Origin: Candidatus Poribacteria bacterium
GTDB lineage: Bacteria > Poribacteria > WGA-4E > WGA-3G
Length of the DNA: 64,000 bases
Direction of reading: 5' to 3'
Assembly (NCBI GenBank): GCA_965215265.1
Contig: OZ244048.1
Location: forward strand, 3,680,001 to 3,744,000
This document shows, piece by piece, positions 15,639-25,363 of the stretch. Position 1 is the first letter of the stretch. The number at the start of each line of letters is the position of its first letter. A model generated the notes under the pieces. That model had not been told where the DNA came from and did not search any database. It saw nothing but the letters and a program-made list of their open reading frames with translations. Made by a program: the position numbers and the translations under genes.

Positions 15639-18245
15639 TTACATTTGGGCTGCATTTTCTAACGCATCCTCAAGCGACTGCCGAAATTCGTTTTCATCTG
15701 CGTTGTTGTAGAACGGTACGCCGATTAAGCGATAATTTCTATCCTCTGTCAGGATTCTATTACTAAATTTCGCTCTGATTTCTTCCAAGAAGTCGGCTTT
15801 CCATTTGTCATGTGATTGCAAAAATGCCCCTTTCGGTTCGATGAAAAGTTGATAACTCAGCAGTGTATCGCTTTTGTTAGCATCATTTCCGGATTTTAAA
15901 CCGTTTTTCTCACGTAAGAACAAGACAAAGTCGGGTTGGAAAGTTTGCCCATCTGGAAAATTATGGATAGCAAAATGCCCTTCGTTGCGGAGCAGATAAA
16001 TATCCTCGTATCTTTCCTCTAATTGTGGGATGAGTCGATCTAACATCCGCACGAACGCCTTTTCTACACTGCTGCCGTAGAGGGTATTGAAGGCAAACCA
16101 GTCTCTGACGGAGACGAAGTGCTTGAACTGTACGTCCTCGTCGGCATTCGGGTTGTTAGGGTTGAATTTCAGACGCTTATCCGTGAAAATTGCCCGGACA
16201 GGTTGCTCCCCAAACGCTGTTGTGCCCTCGTATTCTGTGATTTGCTTTTGGATTTCTGCCTCAATTTGCTGCATCAGCCCACAACATGCTGCGAATTGTT
16301 CGTGACGATTTGATTCCAATGCATCGATATCGCCTTCAAAGGTGATTTCTAGGCTCCCTAAGTAGTGCTCTGATGTCATGAATTCGCGCATGGATGTTAG
16401 TTGTGGAAAATAGCGTTTGAGCGAGGCGAACGTGAAAAACGGATTCCTAGCAATCGCGGATTGAACGACGTTGCGTTCAATATCAGTTACCTTCATATCC
16501 CGTCGGTTCTCATTGTACACCACCGGTGTCATCCCGTTTTCCAATATGGTGGTCGTCCCGCCGGATCCGGTCGCCACGTTATGAACGTAGTTTTGTTTCT
16601 GCACACCTAAGTCCTCAAAAGATTGGATATGCCGGTGATCCTTCGGGACGCGTTTGTTGAGCCAGACGACACCGTATTTGTAAAAGTCGGTCTGCTTAAA
16701 CTGCTTTTTTAATTTGAGTTTTCGGGTTACAGTCCTCTCGTCTAACATGCCTTGTTCGACTAAGGCAGTGCGGATTTCAGAGATATAGCGCGAGTCGTTG
16801 ATACTGTGGTAGTGTAGTTCTTCCAAGACACGTAGTTCATTATCAAGGTCCCCGTCGAATTTACGTCGGAACCGGTCGGGTTGTTCTGGTAGGATAAACG
16901 GAAAATAACGTGCCCCACGTCCGATGAGCTGCGCCTCGGATGTCGTCGTTGAACCGATTTTACCTCGTCCGGAATCCCGTGTCTCATAACAACGGACAAT
17001 GTCAAATAGGTTCAGAACGTCCCAGCCTTCGTTGAGCTTCTGCACCGCAAAGATCGCCCGGATCGGATTGCTCGGCTCTTCAAGCGTATTCACCTGGATC
17101 TGATAGTTCTTTTTCTCCTTCTCATCATTGACTGAAAGACAGTGTGCTTCTTGAAATTCTTGTTTCAGACGTTGTGCTAACTGTTCCTCGGTGATATTAT
17201 TTTCAGCGAAGAATCGGAGTGCTTGTTCAACAATAGGAATGTTTGATCCACGGATACCGCAGATCTCTTGTGCCGTGAGACCGTCAATCAATTGATGAAA
17301 AGTCGCTTTGTTCTCTTGCGACTGTGCAATTGTGCGCTGTGCCTTGAACAGAATCACCGGTTTGAAGTTAATCCCGTAAGCTGCCGCCACCTCCTGTTTA
17401 TATTGGCTGAGAATGAGAGCCTGCAAGATGCGTTGGTTCAATTCAAAATCGGATTGAACAATTACCACGTCTTTTGAGAACCGATCGTTTCGGAAATTCA
17501 CCAAATCGTAGCGGGTAATAACCTTATTCCGATATTTCTCCACCATTGCTGACGTTTCGTAATCGTGCGTGGCGGTGAATTCCAACAGCAAATTATCTCT
17601 ATTGGAATTAAAGATTCGCTCCACCGTGCTTTCCCAATTGTCAAATAGCTCCTGCTGTGTCTTGGTCTTAACGTTCATATGATGTGCTTCATCCGCCAAG
17701 AGTACGATCCGTTTCTCTGCGAAATCCTCGTAGGTCAGTTTATTCTCCTTCTCCGTTGTCATATCGCCGTGGAGCTGCTGGATGGTTGTGAAGCAGATAT
17801 TGATCTCGTTTTCATTGACACCTTCAAAATTATCTACCTGTGTCACGGCAACGCGTCGTCCCGCAAAATAGATATTTTCGCTGAAAAGATATTTAGAGGA
17901 GAGCGGGTTGAGGAAGTTGTCCTTCGTCTTCTCAATGATATTGGTGGAATTGACGAAAAATAGGAAATTACGGTACCCTTTTTCATAGAGATAGAGGATT
18001 AGCCCTGCCATGATGAGCGTCTTACCACTGCCGGTCGCCATGTTGAACAGCAGGTGCAGCGGGTTCTCCTTGCCTGGGAAATCGGTATTGAGGCAGTGAA
18101 TAAACCTTGCAAACGCTTCTTCCTGATAGGGACGGAGTTCAAACACCGGATTCAGATTTTGCATGATGCTCTCCGGCATTTCCGGTTTGAGACCTCCGTA
18201 GTTGAATGTAATATCAAGTTTTTCATGAAGGAATTGGTTAGGCAT
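15639..18245 (-). CDS. res: type III restriction enzyme Res subunit (SF2 ATPase + PD-(D/E)xK nuclease)
   Basis: LRPYQ, MATGSGKT, DEAHH, FTAT, LNEGWDV, QLIGRGAR and C-terminal PDF...IEPKG; ATG 18245 overlaps the end of the upstream mod. Confidence 0.92.
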   Translation of the reverse strand: MPNQFLHEKLDITFNYGGLKPEMPESIMQNLNPVFELRPYQEEAFARFIHCLNTDFPGKENPLHLLFNMATGSGKTLIMAGLILYLYEKGYRNFLFFVNSTNIIEKTKDNFLNPLSSKYLFSENIYFAGRRVAVTQVDNFEGVNENEINICFTTIQQLHGDMTTEKENKLTYEDFAEKRIVLLADEAHHMNVKTKTQQELFDNWESTVERIFNSNRDNLLLEFTATHDYETSAMVEKYRNKVITRYDLVNFRNDRFSKDVVIVQSDFELNQRILQALILSQYKQEVAAAYGINFKPVILFKAQRTIAQSQENKATFHQLIDGLTAQEICGIRGSNIPIVEQALRFFAENNITEEQLAQRLKQEFQEAHCLSVNDEKEKKNYQIQVNTLEEPSNPIRAIFAVQKLNEGWDVLNLFDIVRCYETRDSGRGKIGSTTTSEAQLIGRGARYFPFILPEQPDRFRRKFDGDLDNELRVLEELHYHSINDSRYISEIRTALVEQGMLDERTVTRKLKLKKQFKQTDFYKYGVVWLNKRVPKDHRHIQSFEDLGVQKQNYVHNVATGSGGTTTILENGMTPVVYNENRRDMKVTDIERNVVQSAIARNPFFTFASLKRYFPQLTSMREFMTSEHYLGSLEITFEGDIDALESNRHEQFAACCGLMQQIEAEIQKQITEYEGTTAFGEQPVRAIFTDKRLKFNPNNPNADEDVQFKHFVSVRDWFAFNTLYGSSVEKAFVRMLDRLIPQLEERYEDIYLLRNEGHFAIHNFPDGQTFQPDFVLFLREKNGLKSGNDANKSDTLLSYQLFIEPKGAFLQSHDKWKADFLEEIRAKFSNRILTEDRNYRLIGVPFYNNADENEFRQSLEDALENAAQM

Positions 18246-20201
18246 CGTTATCTGCTCCATAAAATTCTCGGTTGAGTCCTTTATCTGTCTCACTAACCTC
18301 AAAATCCGCGTCGTCTATTTCGGAGAGGTTGAGATAGAGTTGATTCTTGTCCAGCAACGCCGCCAAGAGTTGCTGCTGCTTGTCCACATTATTGATGGCG
18401 ATGAAATCTCGCACTGCGGCTTCAGGCATTTGCGGATTGACATACCAATTCAAGAATGAGTTTTCGGCGATGTTTCGCCAGAGTTTGACAAGTTCTTCAG
18501 CGGATTGTGCCGCTTGAATCTGTTCCATAAACGCCTCGTTGTATGGCATTAACTCACACGAGAGGAAAGATGCTGGTGTTAACCCCTCCTGAGCCATCAC
18601 TTTCTCAATCCGCTCCTTGCAAACAGTGACATGTTCCTCTAATTGTTCAACAAGGATAAATTGCCGCTCTACCCCCCCCCTTCAGATTTGTTAAGTTCAA
18701 GCACGGCATGCCCTGTTGTGCCTGATCCGGCGAAAAAGTCTAAAACAATATCATTACTGCCGCGCTGGGTGATAATATCAATTGCATCTTTTACAGTGTG
18801 AATGGATTTAGGATAACTGAAGACTTTTTTGCCATCAAACATTCCTTTCAGTAGGATTGTCCCGTGTGCAGACGCATCATATTTTGAGTCAGTCCATATT
18901 GTTTTAGTTTTCCTGCCTTCTCGAATTCTATCCTTTATATACAGCGTCCATTTGCCCCTAGATTTCTTGCAGACTATTTCCCCTTTTGCCACAAGTTTCA
19001 GGAAAGAAGGCTTTGTTTGTCGCCATACTCGTTCTTTCCCAAGCGAATCTAATGGCAGAATTTTGACAAATCCTTCTTTTTCTTCCAACGAAAATTCATT
19101 TTCGCTTTCATTATAGTAAATCGGATAGAAAGAATTTGGTCTCTCTTCAGGAGTTGAATAGCCTCCACCTCTCCTAAAGGGCGAAAGGCGGTACCTGCTT
19201 ATCTCATCCTGATGGTTGAAATCAAGTTCTTGTTGTTCTGTCAATTTTATAAGGTTTGTTGATACGTTATCAATGGCCTTGGCGTAAAATAGTGCGTATT
19301 CGTGACAGGTTGCAAAGTGAGTGTTCGTTGTGCGACCACCTGGCTTACTTTGAATGACGATAGTCCCGATATGATTTTCTCTGCCAAAAGTGTCATCGCA
19401 GAGTAGTTTGAGATGTGCGTATTCATAATCATCTATGGTAGCGACTAGAACGCCTTTTTCTGATAGCAAGTCTTTTGAAATATCTAGCCGGTTCTTCATA
19501 AACGTCAACCAACTTGAATGATTGAAAGAATTGTTGTATCCAAAAATATTAGCATCCCCTTTCGTGTTATACGGTGGATCTATGTAAATCAACTTTATCT
19601 TCCCTCGGAACTGTTGTTTGAGGGAGTGAAGTGCAATCAGATTATTGCCCTTGATGATAAGGTTTTCTCGGATTATACCCTCTTCATCGCGTTTGATAGC
19701 GGACACCGGTTGTGTGCCGGCAGCCGTGTGGCGTTTCCAATTCGTTAGCACCTTCGCATCTAAGAGGCGGTTGATTTCATCGTCGGCAAGGATTTCATTG
19801 AAGAAAAGCTCCTGTCGTTTTTCCTCCTCGTGCGTCTGTCCCCCCTCCAAGACGCAATCCTTATAGGGCCATGCGAGTGCGACTTCGCCGCGTTCTCGTA
19901 GGAACTTGTCATCAACGGTTAATCCGATTCTGTTGCGGAATCTGGTGTAGGAGTCGCCAAAGAAGTTTTTGTCAGAGATGTAGGTAATGAAGGTGTTGTA
20001 ATTGAAAACATACCGCCCGTTGATGTCGTCAAAAAATTTTTCCGCTATCTCCTTATCTGTCATCAACAGAGCAATCAAGCCGTGGTCGAGTTGCCAGGCG
20101 CGGTTTCTGACGGCGGCGGGGATGAGTTCTTCGGCATCGTCAACAAAACGCCGGTCGGTTTTGAGGAGGTTAATCAGTTTTTGGTTGAAGTTTGATGGCA
20201 T
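18238..20201 (-). CDS. mod: type III R-M methyltransferase Mod copy C, out of frame at a G9 tract (candidate phase-OFF)
   Basis: NLIIKGNNL, IYIDPPYNT and DFFAGSGTT in 18669..20201; C-terminal part in 18238..18600; one extra G gives a 654-aa protein. Confidence 0.85.
18672..18680 (-). repeat. G9 homopolymer tract in mod C
   Basis: Nine C on the + strand; the coding strand reads GAA GGG GGG GGG TAG. Confidence 0.9.
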
Positions 20202-20221
20202 AGTCGTCTCTTTTTTGTCGG

Positions 20222-22159
20222 TTATGTATAAAATTTCTGGTTCAGTGCCTTATCTTCGTCGCTGACACCAAAATCCGCGTCGTCTATTTCGGAGAGGTTG
20301 ACATAGAGTTGATTCTTATCCAGCAATGCCGCCAAGAGTTGCTGCTGCTTGTCCACATCATTGATGGCGATAAAATCTCGCACTGCGGCTTCAGGCATTT
20401 GCGGATTGACATACCAATTCAAGAATGAGTTTTCGGCGATGTTTTGCCAGAGTGTGACAAGTTCTTCAGAGGATTGTGCACTTTGGATTTTGTTCATATA
20501 GGCTTGGTTGTATGGCATCAGTTCACAATAGATGAAGTTACCACCGCCTTGCCATTTGATGGATTTGGAGATACCCCCTTGTTCTCCGGCAATGACTTTT
20601 TTTAAGCGGGTGAGCGTCACCGTTTCGACATAATTCATTTGTTCAATACCGATGTACTGTCTACCCATTTTGTGTGCGACAGATGCAGTTGTGCCACTAC
20701 CTAAGTGAAAATCCAGCACGATGCTTCCTTCATCGGTACCGAGTTCAATAACACGTGCAATTAGATGTTCAGATTTCGGATAGTCAAATACTTTCTGGTC
20801 GAATAATGTTTTTATGTGCTCGGTTCCTCTTTCGTTTACGAATTCTTTTTCATCCCAAATACTTCGCTGTCGTTTTGAGTTACTCCTATATTTTTGGACG
20901 ATCATATACCCTTGATCTCTTTTCGCTTTCCCTTTTATCTCCGTGTTTAAGTTCTGGCGTGCTTTTTCCTGGCTCCATCTCCAAACCGTTTGGATGCCCT
21001 GCGATTTTAATGGCATCACTTCGATAAAACCTGGTTTTTCTTTCAAGGAAACTTCCAGCAAGCCATTGGCATCCATATTGGTTGGATTGATATAAAAAGG
21101 GTAACAGAGGTTTGGACGATTTTTAGCGTTAAATCGAACATTGCGATTTCTGAGCTCCATTAAGTTAAAACCGCCGAGTGTATCTTCATAGTCAAACGTT
21201 TTATCGTTTTCTTCTAATTGCTTCAGTTCGATTTGTTTGTTTTTTGAATAGATCAAAAGGTATTCGTGAGTCCTCGCAATACCACCGTAATCTCTACCAC
21301 TTCTATTTATTACAACGATAGAATTTGAGATAAAATTTCGGCTACCAAAAATCTCATCCATCAAAACTTTCAGATATGCTTGTTCGTTATCATCACACTG
21401 AACAAAAATTACTCCATCATTTCGCAATAATTTGATCGCTACTTCCAACCGATTTCTCATAAATGTGAGCCAACTGGAATGATTGAAACTATCATTATAA
21501 CCAAACGAATCATTTCCGGTGTTGTACGGCGGATCTATGTAAATTAATTTCACCTTGCCCCGGAATTGCTGTTTCAAACTATACAGTGCTAATAGGTTGT
21601 TGCCTTTGATGATAAGGTTTTCTCGGATTGTGCCCTCTTCATCGCGTTTGATGGCGGACACCGGTTGTGTGCCGGCAGCCGTGTGGCGTTTCCAATTCGT
21701 TAGCACCTTCGCATCTAAGAGGCGGTTGATTTCATCGTCGGCAAGAATTTCATTGAAGAAAAGTTCCTGTCGTTTTTCCTCCTCGTGCGTCTGTCCTCCC
21801 TCCAAGACGCAATCCTTATAGGGCCATGCGAGTGCGACTTCGCCACGCTCGCGCAGGAATTTGTCGTCAATAGTTAATCCGATTCTGTTTCGGAATCTTG
21901 TATAGGAGTCGCCAAAGAAGTTTTTGTCGGAGATATAGGTAATGAAGGTGTTGTAATTGAAAACATACCGCCCGTTGATGTCGTCAAAAAATTTTTCCGC
22001 TATCTCCTTATCTGTCATCAACAGAGCAATCAAGCCGTGGTCGAGTTGCCAGGCGTGATTTCTGACGGCGGCGGGGATGAGTTCCTCGGCATCGTCAACA
22101 AAACGCCGGTCGGTTTTGAGGAGGGCGATGAGTTTTTGGTTGAGGTTGGCTCTACGCAT
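20222..22159 (-). CDS. mod: type III R-M methyltransferase Mod copy B (intact)
   Basis: DPPY motif IV, YPKSE and DFHLGSGTT motif I; 645 aa, uninterrupted. Confidence 0.92.
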   Translation of the reverse strand: MRRANLNQKLIALLKTDRRFVDDAEELIPAAVRNHAWQLDHGLIALLMTDKEIAEKFFDDINGRYVFNYNTFITYISDKNFFGDSYTRFRNRIGLTIDDKFLRERGEVALAWPYKDCVLEGGQTHEEEKRQELFFNEILADDEINRLLDAKVLTNWKRHTAAGTQPVSAIKRDEEGTIRENLIIKGNNLLALYSLKQQFRGKVKLIYIDPPYNTGNDSFGYNDSFNHSSWLTFMRNRLEVAIKLLRNDGVIFVQCDDNEQAYLKVLMDEIFGSRNFISNSIVVINRSGRDYGGIARTHEYLLIYSKNKQIELKQLEENDKTFDYEDTLGGFNLMELRNRNVRFNAKNRPNLCYPFYINPTNMDANGLLEVSLKEKPGFIEVMPLKSQGIQTVWRWSQEKARQNLNTEIKGKAKRDQGYMIVQKYRSNSKRQRSIWDEKEFVNERGTEHIKTLFDQKVFDYPKSEHLIARVIELGTDEGSIVLDFHLGSGTTASVAHKMGRQYIGIEQMNYVETVTLTRLKKVIAGEQGGISKSIKWQGGGNFIYCELMPYNQAYMNKIQSAQSSEELVTLWQNIAENSFLNWYVNPQMPEAAVRDFIAINDVDKQQQLLAALLDKNQLYVNLSEIDDADFGVSDEDKALNQKFYT

Positions 22160-22179
22160 AGATTTTCCTTTTTTGTCGG

Positions 22180-24083
22180 TTATGTATAAAATTTCTGGTT
22201 CAGTGCCTTATCTTCGTCGCTAACACCAAAATCCGCGTCGTCTATTTCGGAGAGGTTGAGATAGAGTTGATTCTTGTCCAGCAACGCCGCCAAGAGTTGC
22301 TGCTGTTTGTCCACATCATTGATGGCGATAAAATCTCGCACCGCGGCTTCAGGGATTTGCGGATTAACATACCAGTTCAAGAATGAGTTTTCTGCGATGT
22401 TTCGCCAGAGTGTGACAAGTTCTTCAGAGGATTGTGCCGCTTGAATCTGTTCCATGAACACTTCGTTGTATGGCATTAACTCACACGACAGGAAAGATGC
22501 TGGTGTTAACCCCTCCTGAGCCATCACTTTCTCAATTCGCTCCTTGCAAATAACGACATGTTCCTCTAATTGCTCAACGAGGATAAATTGCCGCTCTACC
22601 CCCCCCCTTCATATTTGTTAAGTTCTAAGGCAGCATGCCCCGTCGTTCCTGAACCAGCGAAGAAGTCAAGGACAATATCACCCGCATCAGTTGTGAGTTT
22701 CATGATATCTAAAACAGTATATAGAGATTTGGGGTAACTAAACGTCTGCCGCCGATCTAACATTTTTTTTAGCAAACCTGTACCATGATGGTTTGCATCG
22801 TACCGGGCATCAATCCACATGGTTGTTGCTTTATTTTTCTTTCTAACTATTTTTCTATAAATTTTGTGTTCGTTTCCCACTTTTCTCACAATAATTTTTC
22901 CAGCATTTAGTTCCTCTAAAAAGGATTCCTTAACAAGTTTCCAAGTTCTCATCCCATTCTTACCCATAGGTAAAAGTTTGACGAAATCGCTGCCGTTATC
23001 ATCTATTGTAATTTCTTGGGTTATCGGATTGTAAAAAATAGGATAATAAAGGCTAGGGCGGGTCTCCGGGGTTGCATCTTCTCTTGACCGGATAAATGAA
23101 TCCTCTTCTTCCGCTTCATTTATTTCAAAACGGAAATCCTCTTTAACTTTCGTAATGTTTTTGGCATAAAATAACGCGTACTCATGAACGGTTGAGAAAA
23201 AACTGCTTTGCGTTCTACCACGCGGATGATGTCTGATACAAACCGTGCCTATTTTATTCTGTCCACCGAAAACTTCATCCAATAGCACTCCCAGGTAAAA
23301 TAATTCTGTATCATCGATAGCTACCGCTATGATTCCATTTTCGCTTAGTAATTCCTTCGCAACCGCTAATCTGTTTTTCATAAAGGTGAGCCAAGTGGAG
23401 TGATTAAAGGCGTTGTTGTAGGTAAAACTGGCCGCAGAACCGCCTGTATTATACGGTGGATCTATGTAAATCAATTTTATCTTTCCCTGAAACTGTGGCT
23501 TCAAACTATGCAGTACCAATAGGTTATTGCCTTTGATGATAAGGTTTTCCCGGATTGTGCCCTCTTCATCGCGTTTGATGGCGGACACAGGTCCCGTCCC
23601 AGCAGCCGTGTGGCGTTTCCAATTTGTTAGCACCTTCGCATCCAAAAGACGGTTGATTTCATCGTCGGCAAGGGTTTGATTGAAAAAGAGTTCTTTTCGC
23701 TTCTCTTCTTCGTGTGTCTGTCCACCCTCCAGTATACAGTCTTTATACGGCCAAACAAGGGAGACCTCGCCACGCTCGCGCAGGAATTTGTCATCAACGG
23801 TTAATCCGATTCTGTTCCGGAATCTGGTGTAGGAGTTGCCAAAGAAGTTTTTGTCAGAGATGTAGGTAATGAAGGTGTTGTAGTTGAAAACATACCGCCC
23901 GTTGATGTCGTCAAAAAATTTTTCCGCTATTTCCTTATCTGTCATCAACAGAGCAATCAAGCCGTGGTCGAGTTGCCAGGCGTGATTTCTGACGGCGGCA
24001 GGGATGAGTTCCTCGGCATCGTCAACAAAACGCCGGTCGGTTTTGAGGAGGTTAATCAGTTTTTGGTTGAAGTTTGATGGCAT
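22180..24083 (-). CDS. mod: type III R-M methyltransferase Mod copy A, out of frame at a G9 tract (candidate phase-OFF)
   Basis: DPPY and DFFAGSGTT in 22596..24083; C-terminal part in 22180..22527; one extra G gives a 634-aa protein. Confidence 0.85.
22599..22607 (-). repeat. G9 homopolymer tract in mod A
   Basis: Nine C on the + strand, in the same context as mod C (GAA G9 TAGAGCGGCAATTTATC on the coding strand). Confidence 0.9.
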
Positions 24084-24215
24084 AATCGTCTCTTTTTTTG
24101 TTGGGTAAACGGTTGGAGTTCACCTTGCACGATGTGTTTCTATACCATTAAGTATACTCTAAAACAGGATTGGTGTCAAAAATATCAGATCAGAAATGCG
24201 TTTTACTGAAAAAAT

Positions 24216-24258
24216 TGCCTTATCTGCGTCACTGATACCAAAATCCGCATCGTCTATT
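24216..24258 (-). pseudogene. 43-bp relic of a mod 3' end
   Basis: 39/43 identical to 20246-20288; encodes IDDADFGISDADKA. Confidence 0.7.
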
Positions 24259-25363
24259 GCGCCTTCCACATTTGTGCACGCTCGAGGAATACGCCACGAT
24301 CTGCCAGCCACTCTTCATAACCGATATTTCTGTTATCGGTGAGGTAGTTAATTTTCTCATCAATGCAGGCGGCCAGCTCAGCATCTTCCAAGGCAAATGA
24401 AAAGCCGCCGTGTTCTACTTCTTCATCAAGAGCGGTGACAACGAATTTGCCACCTGAAGCATGCGCTAATTCAAGGTTACCGAGCCTGCTGCGTGCGATT
24501 GCATCGATGTCACCAGCCCTGAGTGCTTCTAGCCGTTCGGATGCACTAAGGTAGATGATTTGAGGCATGTTTTCTGTTGGTGGATAGAGGCGGGTCCGTG
24601 TTACAAGATTGGGTGAAACCGCACCAGCGGTGATTTTGTACGCTGGTGTTCCGTCAGCAACGAGAGTCGCTTGCGGTGTCTCAATTCGTGTGCCCGCGGC
24701 GAGAGTACCTTCTTCATTGGCGAGCCCTGTGAGTACAAGGAGCCGGGCTTCGCTCGTAGTGCCAGGCAGCGTGGCGATGCGCATGTCTTGAGTCAAATCT
24801 GCATGGGTAGCGATGCGTTTGGCATCTTCGGCAGCTACGAGGAGCGATTGCTGGAAAGTGATATGCCCAGAGGTAAAAATGATGCGTCGTGTGCCGGTTG
24901 CATCGCGCGTCCGGGAGTCAAGGATTGTAATGCCGCCACTAATCAGGTCGTATTCGGGTTCTGTTGACTTCAGCCAGATGTCGGGCCATTCGGGGATTGC
25001 ATGGCGTGAAAACGAAAGTCCGGTTCCTTCCATTGCTTCAAGCGCGGTTAGCAGGTCTGCCTCATACCCCTGATGTGTATTGAATCCATCTGAGTTCGGG
25101 TCTGGGTCTGCACTGTAGCTTATTGGTTCAAAAAAGGGGAAGAAGCCCACATTTAGCACGCGCATGCCATCTGTGCAAGCATGCCGGGTTGTTCCATTTT
25201 CAGGCGTAACCGTCTGTTGCATTTTCTCACAAGCTGCAAAGAGGAAGAGAGTGCTCAAAAGTGCATAGAACGCGATACCTTTCGAGGCTTGGCTTCCGGC
25301 AAGATGCAAAAGGCGAAGTGCCGTGCTTCTGTTTTGTGGTAGCATGCTGAAAAATTTATACAT
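24254..25363 (-). CDS. family 3 substrate-binding lipoprotein
   Basis: Lipobox LFAAC, GYEADLL..., GGITILDSR and EALRAGDIDA, typical of the SBP_bac_3 fold. Confidence 0.75.
   Translation of the reverse strand: MYKFFSMLPQNRSTALRLLHLAGSQASKGIAFYALLSTLFLFAACEKMQQTVTPENGTTRHACTDGMRVLNVGFFPFFEPISYSADPDPNSDGFNTHQGYEADLLTALEAMEGTGLSFSRHAIPEWPDIWLKSTEPEYDLISGGITILDSRTRDATGTRRIIFTSGHITFQQSLLVAAEDAKRIATHADLTQDMRIATLPGTTSEARLLVLTGLANEEGTLAAGTRIETPQATLVADGTPAYKITAGAVSPNLVTRTRLYPPTENMPQIIYLSASERLEALRAGDIDAIARSRLGNLELAHASGGKFVVTALDEEVEHGGFSFALEDAELAACIDEKINYLTDNRNIGYEEWLADRGVFLERAQMWKAQ

Follow-up and report, generated by a model that had tools for sequence, protein, structure and literature searches.

A type III restriction-modification operon of Candidatus Poribacteria with three tandem mod genes, two of them broken at a poly-G run, and a single res gene

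Type III restriction-modification enzymes are complexes of two methylase (Mod) subunits with one Res subunit (Mod2Res1); they hemimethylate a short asymmetric site, and for cleavage they require ATP and a pair of sites in inverse orientation. Among these systems, the closest described relatives of the locus reported here are EcoP15I and the multi-gene systems of mycoplasmas. In EcoP15I, the N-terminal helices of the two Mod subunits intertwine into a dimer in which one protomer reads the site with its recognition domain and its partner methylates; Res is held by the C-terminal domain of the reading protomer, as described by Gupta (2015, PMC4490356). In Mycoplasma bovis PG45, three co-localised mod genes with conserved ends, unlike recognition regions and GA tracts were reported, and duplication followed by domain acquisition was proposed as their origin (Atack 2018, PMC5909438). 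The same locus was described as one res gene with three mod genes, of which only mod1 overlaps res, and a similar cluster in M. pulmonis was cited (Ahmed 2026, 10.64898/2026.05.01.722158). M. agalactiae 5632 has two tandem mod genes, MAGa1570 and MAGa1580, that are about 65% identical and are followed by one res; the repeat length is reported to break the frames in most strains, and methylation to occur only with intact genes (PMC9465063). A locus of this kind, with three mod genes (modA, modB and modC) and one res, is described here from a window of 64,000 nucleotides (nt), the whole stretch of DNA that was analysed, in the genome of a Candidatus Poribacteria bacterium (assembly GCA_965215265.1, contig OZ244048.1, positions 3,680,001 to 3,744,000). 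Positions are those of the window unless a genome is named. An initial sequence-only reading of the locus had taken one mod gene as the norm for type III systems, a premise that is out of date given the accounts of M. bovis PG45 and M. agalactiae 5632.

The four genes form one chromosomal operon on the minus strand, in the order modA-modB-modC-res. The intact member, modB (22159-20222), is an open reading frame (ORF) for a 645-residue type III methylase and contains no G run. In contrast, modA (24083-22180) is 1904 nt long (2 modulo 3) and falls into an N-terminal part of 495 residues (22596-24083) and a tail frame of 139 residues (22180-22599). Similarly, modC (20201-18238) is 1964 nt long (2 modulo 3), with an N-terminal part of 510 residues (18669-20201) and a tail frame of 144 residues (18238-18672). 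The res gene (18245-15639), with its ATG at 18245, encodes the helicase-nuclease subunit of 868 residues. Spacers of 20 nt separate modA from modB (22160-22179) and modB from modC (20202-20221), and both hold a ribosome-binding motif, AAGGA in the first. The last few codons of modA and modB are unlike those of modC, and only modC overlaps res: its stop (18240-18238) lies inside the res start, ATGCCTAA, giving an overlap of 8 bp. The three head-to-tail mod genes, their coordinates and strand, both spacers and the single overlap were thus found exactly as the sequence-only reading had described them.

Assignment to type III agrees between domain, defence-system and fold searches. The Pfam families N6_N4_Mtase and, at the N-terminus, TypeIII_RM_meth were found in all three mod products, and ResIII and DEAD in the res product. 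PADLOC called all three mod genes MTase_III (modB with E 5.5e-191) and res REase_III (E 5.3e-142, residues 13-864 of 868); a search of NCBIfam profiles returned only methylase names below threshold. In ModA, ModB and ModC the DPPY motif (motif IV) precedes F/HxGSGTT (motif I), which is the beta-class order with the recognition region in between. Res carries GSGKT at residue 72, DEAH at 185, QLIGRGAR at 439 and PD...EPK at 771-805, so that its helicase and nuclease motifs appear intact as judged from the translation. The locus therefore combines a beta-class Mod, a Res with superfamily 2 helicase and PD-(D/E)xK nuclease, and a mod gene upstream of and overlapping res. The solved proteins closest to ModB in sequence are 7dsu (Mbo45V, 2.7e-44), 6k0w and 4zcf (EcoP15I), all of them type III Mods. 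The same three structures head the fold matches of an AlphaFold monomer model of ModB (alignment of 68 relatives, mean pLDDT 70), with Z scores of 29.2 for 6k0w, 28.6 for 7dsu and 27.6 for 4zcf; against 4zcf, 348 residues were aligned, residues 130-579 of the model on 63-548 of the chain.

The three mod genes are alike at both ends and unlike in the middle. Their first 640 nt are 87.6-90.7% identical in pairwise comparison, and the encoded heads are 91-95% identical. Over the last 440 nt, modA and modC are 85.5% identical, whereas either compared with modB gives 66-68%, because modB differs in about 110 nt after motif I; its last ~310 nt are again 91% identical to modA and 87% identical to modC. 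The flanks had been called nearly identical in DNA. High likeness is borne out, the degree is not, since they are 82-92% alike. The region between DPPY and motif I had been read as different in each gene, and this is indeed so, with 32-44% protein identity between the central regions. Among 68 members of the family, conservation extends over residues 1-240 and 481-645 but not over residues 281-460. The earlier assignment of a type III locus with three mod paralogues of unlike recognition region and one res is upheld.

The breaks in modA and modC coincide with runs of nine G (G9) at 22599-22607 and 18672-18680 respectively, each with a TAG directly behind it. The run encodes a Gly-Gly-Gly loop just after motif I, which corresponds to the LNKEDGGNR stretch of Mbo45V. 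Behind G9 the frames of both genes are open as far as the ends given above, and one more G or two fewer rejoins them, so that G10 and G7 are the in-frame lengths. No run of at least seven G occurs in modB, and the tract stands at the same place in modA and modC. As assembled, only modB can be made whole, which on the sequence would give a locus with one working specificity and two switched-off reserves. An orphan pair of the same mod family, modD and modE, lies 578 kb away without res (locus L101, G000:C1:3122133-3126038, G000 being the own genome), with a disulfide oxidoreductase-family gene on one side and a threonyl-tRNA synthetase-like gene on the other. Both orphans have G9 at the same codon as modA and modC, and both are broken.

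A run at this codon was found in five of 176 Poribacteria species genomes, and its length is G8, G9 or G10 across these five species. Three run-bearing mod genes have G8 and are in frame (L036, L083 and G010:C107). Eight have G9 or G10 and are out of frame: the own modA, modC, modD and modE, and those of G001, G004, G007 and G010:C130. That of G001 has G10 and is out of frame nevertheless. The shift needed among these relatives is one base more in six, one base fewer in two and none in three, while 66 of the 72 mod genes without this run are intact. No second lesion was found in either part of modA, modC, modD or modE. Compared with its counterpart in G001, modA has a dN/dS of 0.15/2.08 ahead of the run and of 0.16/2.20 past it, with dS saturated and the ratio accordingly rough. 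The low value behind the run shows purifying selection on the tail frame and indicates that this frame has been translated over evolutionary time, though it is broken in both genomes. A conserved tail frame fits a reversible slippage switch and argues against old pseudogenes. In G002, two mod genes hold another run, of G7, in the conserved tail, where it coincides with a frame break (L024:5732-5738 and L026:3848-3854); this may be a second slippery site of the family.

Run length was also compared in contigs, not raw reads, of four public sequencing runs from four studies; the search for sequencing runs that hold the locus listed none of RNA. A contig with one G fewer was present at the modC run in three of the four sequencing runs and at the modA run in one of the four. 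At neither place did these contigs, which drop rare variants, have a listed variant with an additional G, and a pattern scan of the metagenome contigs for the run with its flanks gave no match.

The relatives examined were Candidatus Poribacteria, mostly chromosome-level metagenome-assembled genomes. Among the 71 fetched loci with this mod head, 66 have one head, three have two, one has four (G004) and one has five (G001). The sequence-only reading had proposed a comparison of copy number and recognition-domain order in related genomes; it revealed five mod genes, of unlike set and order, at the same site in a sister species of the same genus (G001). There too, the array is bordered by eno-ftsB and prephenate dehydrogenase, and it reads mod, mod, mod (B type, 75%), res remnant, mod, res, mod (A type, 72%, with the G10 run). 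The remnant consists of the last ~49 codons of res, and the full res of G001 is 80% identical to the own one. In G002 and G007, which belong to other genera, one B-type mod with res adjoins prephenate dehydrogenase, which indicates that the site began as one pair and was expanded in this genus. In the four-mod array of G004 (L027:6564-20600), small ORFs of unknown function, one of them HicA-like, lie between the mod genes, and an open frame of 853 codons without Pfam match follows the last mod and is cut at the end of the locus fetched. In many single-mod loci res begins 2-8 kb after mod, so that other genes often intervene. The same mod head, 69-71% identical, also occurs in Caldilineaceae, Latescibacterota, Thermodesulfobacteriota and Rectinema (L063, L070, L073, L085, L092, L093, L095 and L096), which indicates horizontal spread; one Caldilineaceae locus has two such mod genes in tandem.

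Heads and central regions of these genes have separate histories. A tree of 86 heads, built by a quick method, places the own heads A, B, C and E in one group (support 91), just outside which D branches; the G001 heads, five in number, form a group of their own (99), as do the four of G004 (85). The central regions, by contrast, find their partners in other genomes: L036 (78%) and the fifth mod of G001 (72%) for A, L057 (77%) and the third mod of G001 (75%) for B, and L031 (81%) for E. Heads that cluster by genome and central regions that pair between genomes indicate that the conserved flanks do recombine. The heads are also mosaic, D being unlike all others in columns 1-260 and A in columns 321-500. 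The junction between modD and modE is identical to that between modB and modC at 40 of 40 nt (the spacer and the last 20 nt of modB). From these alignments, the head mosaics and the cross-genome pairing would be the product of gene conversion or cassette exchange via the common flanks. Recombination between conserved flanks, which the earlier reading had advanced as a possibility, is thus backed by the head grouping, the central pairs, the mosaic heads and the unlike set and order in the sister species.

Runs of G or C are a feature of the whole genome. It contains 100 of at least 8, and the counts do not decay with length: for G alone, 253 at length 6, 30 at 7, 24 at 8 and 19 at 9. Of the 100, 45 lie within 3 kb of a methylase domain, whereas random places gave 10.5 on average and 18 at most. 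Junctions of two open frames on the same strand hold 33 runs of at least 8 but only one of the 66 runs of 7. The genes split in this manner are type IIG MmeI/Eco57I-like enzymes, several N6_N4 methylase families, the four mod genes and ComEC. One more base is needed in 18 of 19 split runs of 9, and one base fewer in 13 of 14 split runs of 8. The upstream frame ends 0-14 nt past the run in 25 of the 33 split genes, at once in 12, and the downstream frame opens at most 20 nt before it in 21. TTAAC lies within 30 nt on the 5' side (G strand) of 59 of the 100 runs of at least 8 and of three of the 66 runs of 7; in the longer class, A precedes 77 runs and T follows 76. In one methylase family, the lengths are 8, 8 and 11, and all are in frame.

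The explanation favoured here, to which a probability of about 0.6 is given as a whole, is an expanded type III operon with a fixed modB, poly-G-switched modA and modC, and recombination of flanks. A single mod-res pair would have grown to modA-modB-modC-res. Given their unlike central regions, ModA, ModB and ModC should methylate different sites, and the common N- and C-terminal regions would keep all three fit for dimerising and for contact with Res. Without a repeat, modB would supply the standing Res partner. Slipped-strand mispairing would alter the run length in modA, modC, modD and modE; G9 would halt translation at once and cost the protein its final ~140 residues, with motifs II-III and the C-terminal domain, and G10 or G7 would restore the whole Mod. 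The population would thereby hold reserve specificities, which most cells would keep off and a few would have on. Exchange between flanks, by homologous recombination and by gene conversion, would homogenise heads and tails within a genome, and would reshuffle, add or delete cassettes. Switching within the population, different target sites, the use of one Res by all three Mods and heterodimers are what we infer from the genes and from the described systems. By analogy with EcoP15I, it is plausible that several Mods load one Res and that mixed dimers form, as the earlier reading had proposed.

Several observations weigh against this explanation. All four own copies are out of frame by the same single base, and their runs have identical flanks that may have been homogenised by conversion, so they do not count as four independent observations. 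The contigs with one G fewer may stem from the paralogues modD and modE or from other strains. Across the genome, a length of 10 or 7 would put 31 of the 33 split runs in frame, yet none has it, which could point to under-called G10 runs or to recoding instead of random switching. The sequence and fold matches of ModB to solved Mods span residues ~126-579 only, the ModB model is poor at residues 82-146 and 615-645, and sequence profiles did not reach the N- and C-terminal domains of solved Mods from ModB. Due to the poor model ends and the absence of a profile match there, the head as dimer interface and the tail as Res contact stay a positional analogy. Lastly, when a further Mod is switched on next to an active Res, host sites not yet methylated should become open to cleavage, a cost that the model leaves unexplained.

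Other explanations concern either the array itself or the broken frames. The genome is metagenome-assembled, with repeats of 300-640 nt that are 82-92% identical, so an assembler might have stitched alleles of separate strains in tandem. Strain variants with one mod each would, however, split the depth of the flanks, and in sequencing run X1 the contig depths over the central regions of modA, modB and modC are 277, 269 and 272, compared with 275 and 268 over the flanks; equal depth indicates that no strain variants were collapsed. X1 may be the source sample of the genome, which makes this a check of copy number and not an independent replication. Further evidence against stitching comes from the five-mod and four-mod arrays of other chromosome-level genomes, the former at the same site, and from the second tandem pair with the identical junction in the own genome, which is a single contig of 4.83 Mb. 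The equal depth in X1 and the five-mod sister array contradict mis-assembly, which the sequence-only reading had named as one of its refuting cases, and stitching is hardly credible. Two other sequencing runs gave observations on modB: in X6 its central region (20616-21317) is uncovered, a hole that could mean strains without modB and that proves nothing, and in X7 a contig joins 20327 to 22417, tail B to tail A, which could also mean modB-less strains, the joint lying in the repeated tail. It is unlikely, too, though less so, that the true runs are G10, that the assembly under-called homopolymers and that the locus makes three Mods constantly. Such an error would account for the exact need of one more G in all four own runs and for the 31 of 33 splitting runs that would be in frame at 10 or 7, and G10 is indeed rare in the genome (four runs, as opposed to 46 of 9). 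On the other hand, G10 and G11 do appear at other places of the assembly, and also in relatives of the same record type; the G10 run of G001 is still out of frame; a split frame is seen at only one of the 66 runs of 7; and the members of one methylase family are in frame at called lengths of 8, 8 and 11. The contigs of the four sequencing runs, from which rare variants are dropped, show the reference length or one G fewer.

The broken genes could instead be dead ones at a mutational hot spot, with only modB-res working and modA, modC, modD and modE as debris of duplication. All four own run-bearing copies are broken, as are eight of the 11 in the family, and remnants do exist, of a mod tail upstream of modA and of res in G001. 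Decay of this type is quite improbable in view of the lack of a second lesion on either side of the run in four copies, a between-species dN/dS of ~0.07 behind the run and three relatives that are in frame at G8. Conversion from modB cannot account for the conserved ~110 nt behind the run either, where modB differs. If the G run were a programmed recoding site, polymerase or ribosome slippage would yield a fixed small share of full-length Mod. It would agree with this that 25 of the 33 split genes have a stop 0-14 nt past the run, that the downstream frame opens at most 20 nt before it in 21 and that no split gene is at an in-frame length, and low-level expression in E. coli is reported for an M. 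bovis mod1 with a frameshifted repeat (10.64898/2026.04.01.715767). Recoding is nonetheless very unlikely: among relatives the needed shift varies in direction (six need one base more, two need one fewer, three need none), within families of this genome runs of 8 need one base fewer and runs of 9 one more, and run length varies as it would with a switch at the DNA level.

The genome-wide pattern of runs is more unusual than the locus itself. Nine is the modal length of poly-G tracts in Campylobacter jejuni, where insertions are favoured at G8-9 and deletions at G10-11 (PMC3401435). By that analogy, the split-gene runs may be read as default-off contingency loci at a mutational equilibrium of 8-9. 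A wider proposal is that the locus is a node of a genome-wide, default-off bank of restriction specificities; with all its parts taken together it is unlikely. In it, the ~33 split genes would stand one step from a common length of 10, and each cell would express its own small random subset. An off Mod would keep the dimerising head and the recognition region and lose the Res-docking tail, so that off-state dimers or mixed dimers with ModB could read DNA without nuclease. The TTAAC context would point to a shared route by which switches originate or are read. The context itself, TTAAC-N(7-14)-A-Gn-TAA, is shared by runs in unrelated genes and in both orientations. TTAAC with the G run as a length-tuned promoter spacer was considered and dropped for the mod genes, whose run lies in conserved coding sequence and is in frame in relatives.

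Further genes with runs or tandem methylases were observed in the same genome. Three type IIG copies, at G000:C1:16707-20029 (L111), 340134-343471 and 1555566-1558924, are split by G9 into an MmeI_Mtase part of 729-773 residues and an Eco57I part of 388 residues. A second type IIG family (339-371 and 906-996 residues) has seven copies split by runs of 8 or 9. Two tandem N6_N4 methylase paralogues followed by a ResIII gene occur at G000:C1:2984999-2990250 (L098, 68% identical) and 3023218-3029002 (L099, 59% identical), and more tandem methylase pairs lie on G000:C1 at 2003238-2007892, 1290624-1293925, 223381-226614 and 1195726-1198849. The ComEC frame (Competence and Lactamase_B domains, G000:C1:3228606-3231193, L120) starts at a C8 run, and a preceding frame of 147 codons comes to its end there; DNA uptake may be switchable too. 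A family of ~13 leucine-rich repeat (LRR) proteins, some with a lamin-tail domain, has poly-C of 7-9 a few codons after the start, for example at G000:C1 80845-82542 (L115) and 2496470-2499907 (L116); these are not among the 33 split genes and are candidate switchable eukaryote-like symbiont proteins.

Upstream of modA, a promoter-like site (24151-24179, minus strand; TTGACA, 17 nt, TATACT) lies ~70 nt from the gene and matches the consensus at 11 of 12 positions. It is the best of the region by consensus match only; the spacers hold none as good, and the total count of promoter-like sites in the region is not above that of shuffled sequences. A mod 3'-end remnant of 46 nt (24216-24261, minus strand), 89% identical to nt 1869-1914 of modB, overlaps the stop of an SBP_bac_3-like ORF and is the scar of an earlier copy or of an insertion event. 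The housekeeping neighbours, named by Pfam, are enolase and ftsB, together with the SBP-like ORF, on one side and prephenate dehydrogenase on the other.

With this locus, the multi-mod type III layout is now found outside mycoplasmas, in an uncultured sponge symbiont with ~80 methylase genes. Arrays of one, three, four and five mod genes, two of the larger ones at one conserved site, show growth and turnover by recombination of flanks. One fixed and two switchable Mods before an intact Res make it testable whether one Res serves several Mods and whether unlike Mods pair. The locus may help to explain how sponge symbionts cope with a heavy and changing phage load. A search for phase variation in Poribacteria or sponge symbionts found nothing relevant in the limited literature collection covered.

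Compared with EcoP15I (Mod2Res1), the likeness lies in DPPY before FxGxG with the recognition region in between and in the fold over the 348 aligned residues (Z 27.6). EcoP15I has a single mod, identical protomers for which heterodimers are a non-issue, and N- and C-terminal domains not detectably alike in sequence to those found here. Helicobacter mod genes use G tracts. The phasevarion mod genes of Haemophilus, Neisseria, Helicobacter and Moraxella, according to Atack (2018, PMC5909438), similarly have conserved ends, a recombining central region and on/off switching by a repeat within the ORF. The phasevarion genes stand singly at their loci and serve as regulators in host-adapted pathogens, and their res is often dead, unlike the intact res here. 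The phasome of C. jejuni is alike in its dozens of G/C runs of 8-11, including those in restriction-modification genes (PMC3401435, PMC4889913). It comprises ~29 loci by one account (PMC4965091), as against the 100 runs of at least 8 here, which lie mostly at methylase genes and in which nearly all split genes fall into one in-frame length class.

The closest parallel is Mbo45ORF167P of M. bovis PG45 (mod3-mod2-mod1-res; Mbo45V), which as described has the same layout, with a res-proximal overlap of 14 bp there and 8 bp here. In both, repeat tracts break frames, and the Mod of Mbo45V is the best solved sequence relative of ModB. The differences are several. An (AG)n tract is reported in all three M. 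bovis mod genes, whereas one mod here is free of a tract. The poly-G run stands after motif I, 77% along the gene, so that only the last ~140 residues are removed. The host is an uncultured Poribacteria sponge symbiont, not a minimal-genome pathogen, with relatives that have up to five mod genes, a res remnant and a mod downstream of res, and with an orphan pair that has common flanks. M. agalactiae 5632, as reported, has two mod genes with a GA repeat near the gene start, compared with three here. The architecture of several mod genes with one res is thus already known from mycoplasmas. What is new is the phylum and lifestyle, one unswitched member among switched ones, a putative poly-G switch behind the recognition region, arrays of up to five with a res remnant, and clear evidence for the concerted evolution of flanks, including those of an orphan pair elsewhere in the genome.

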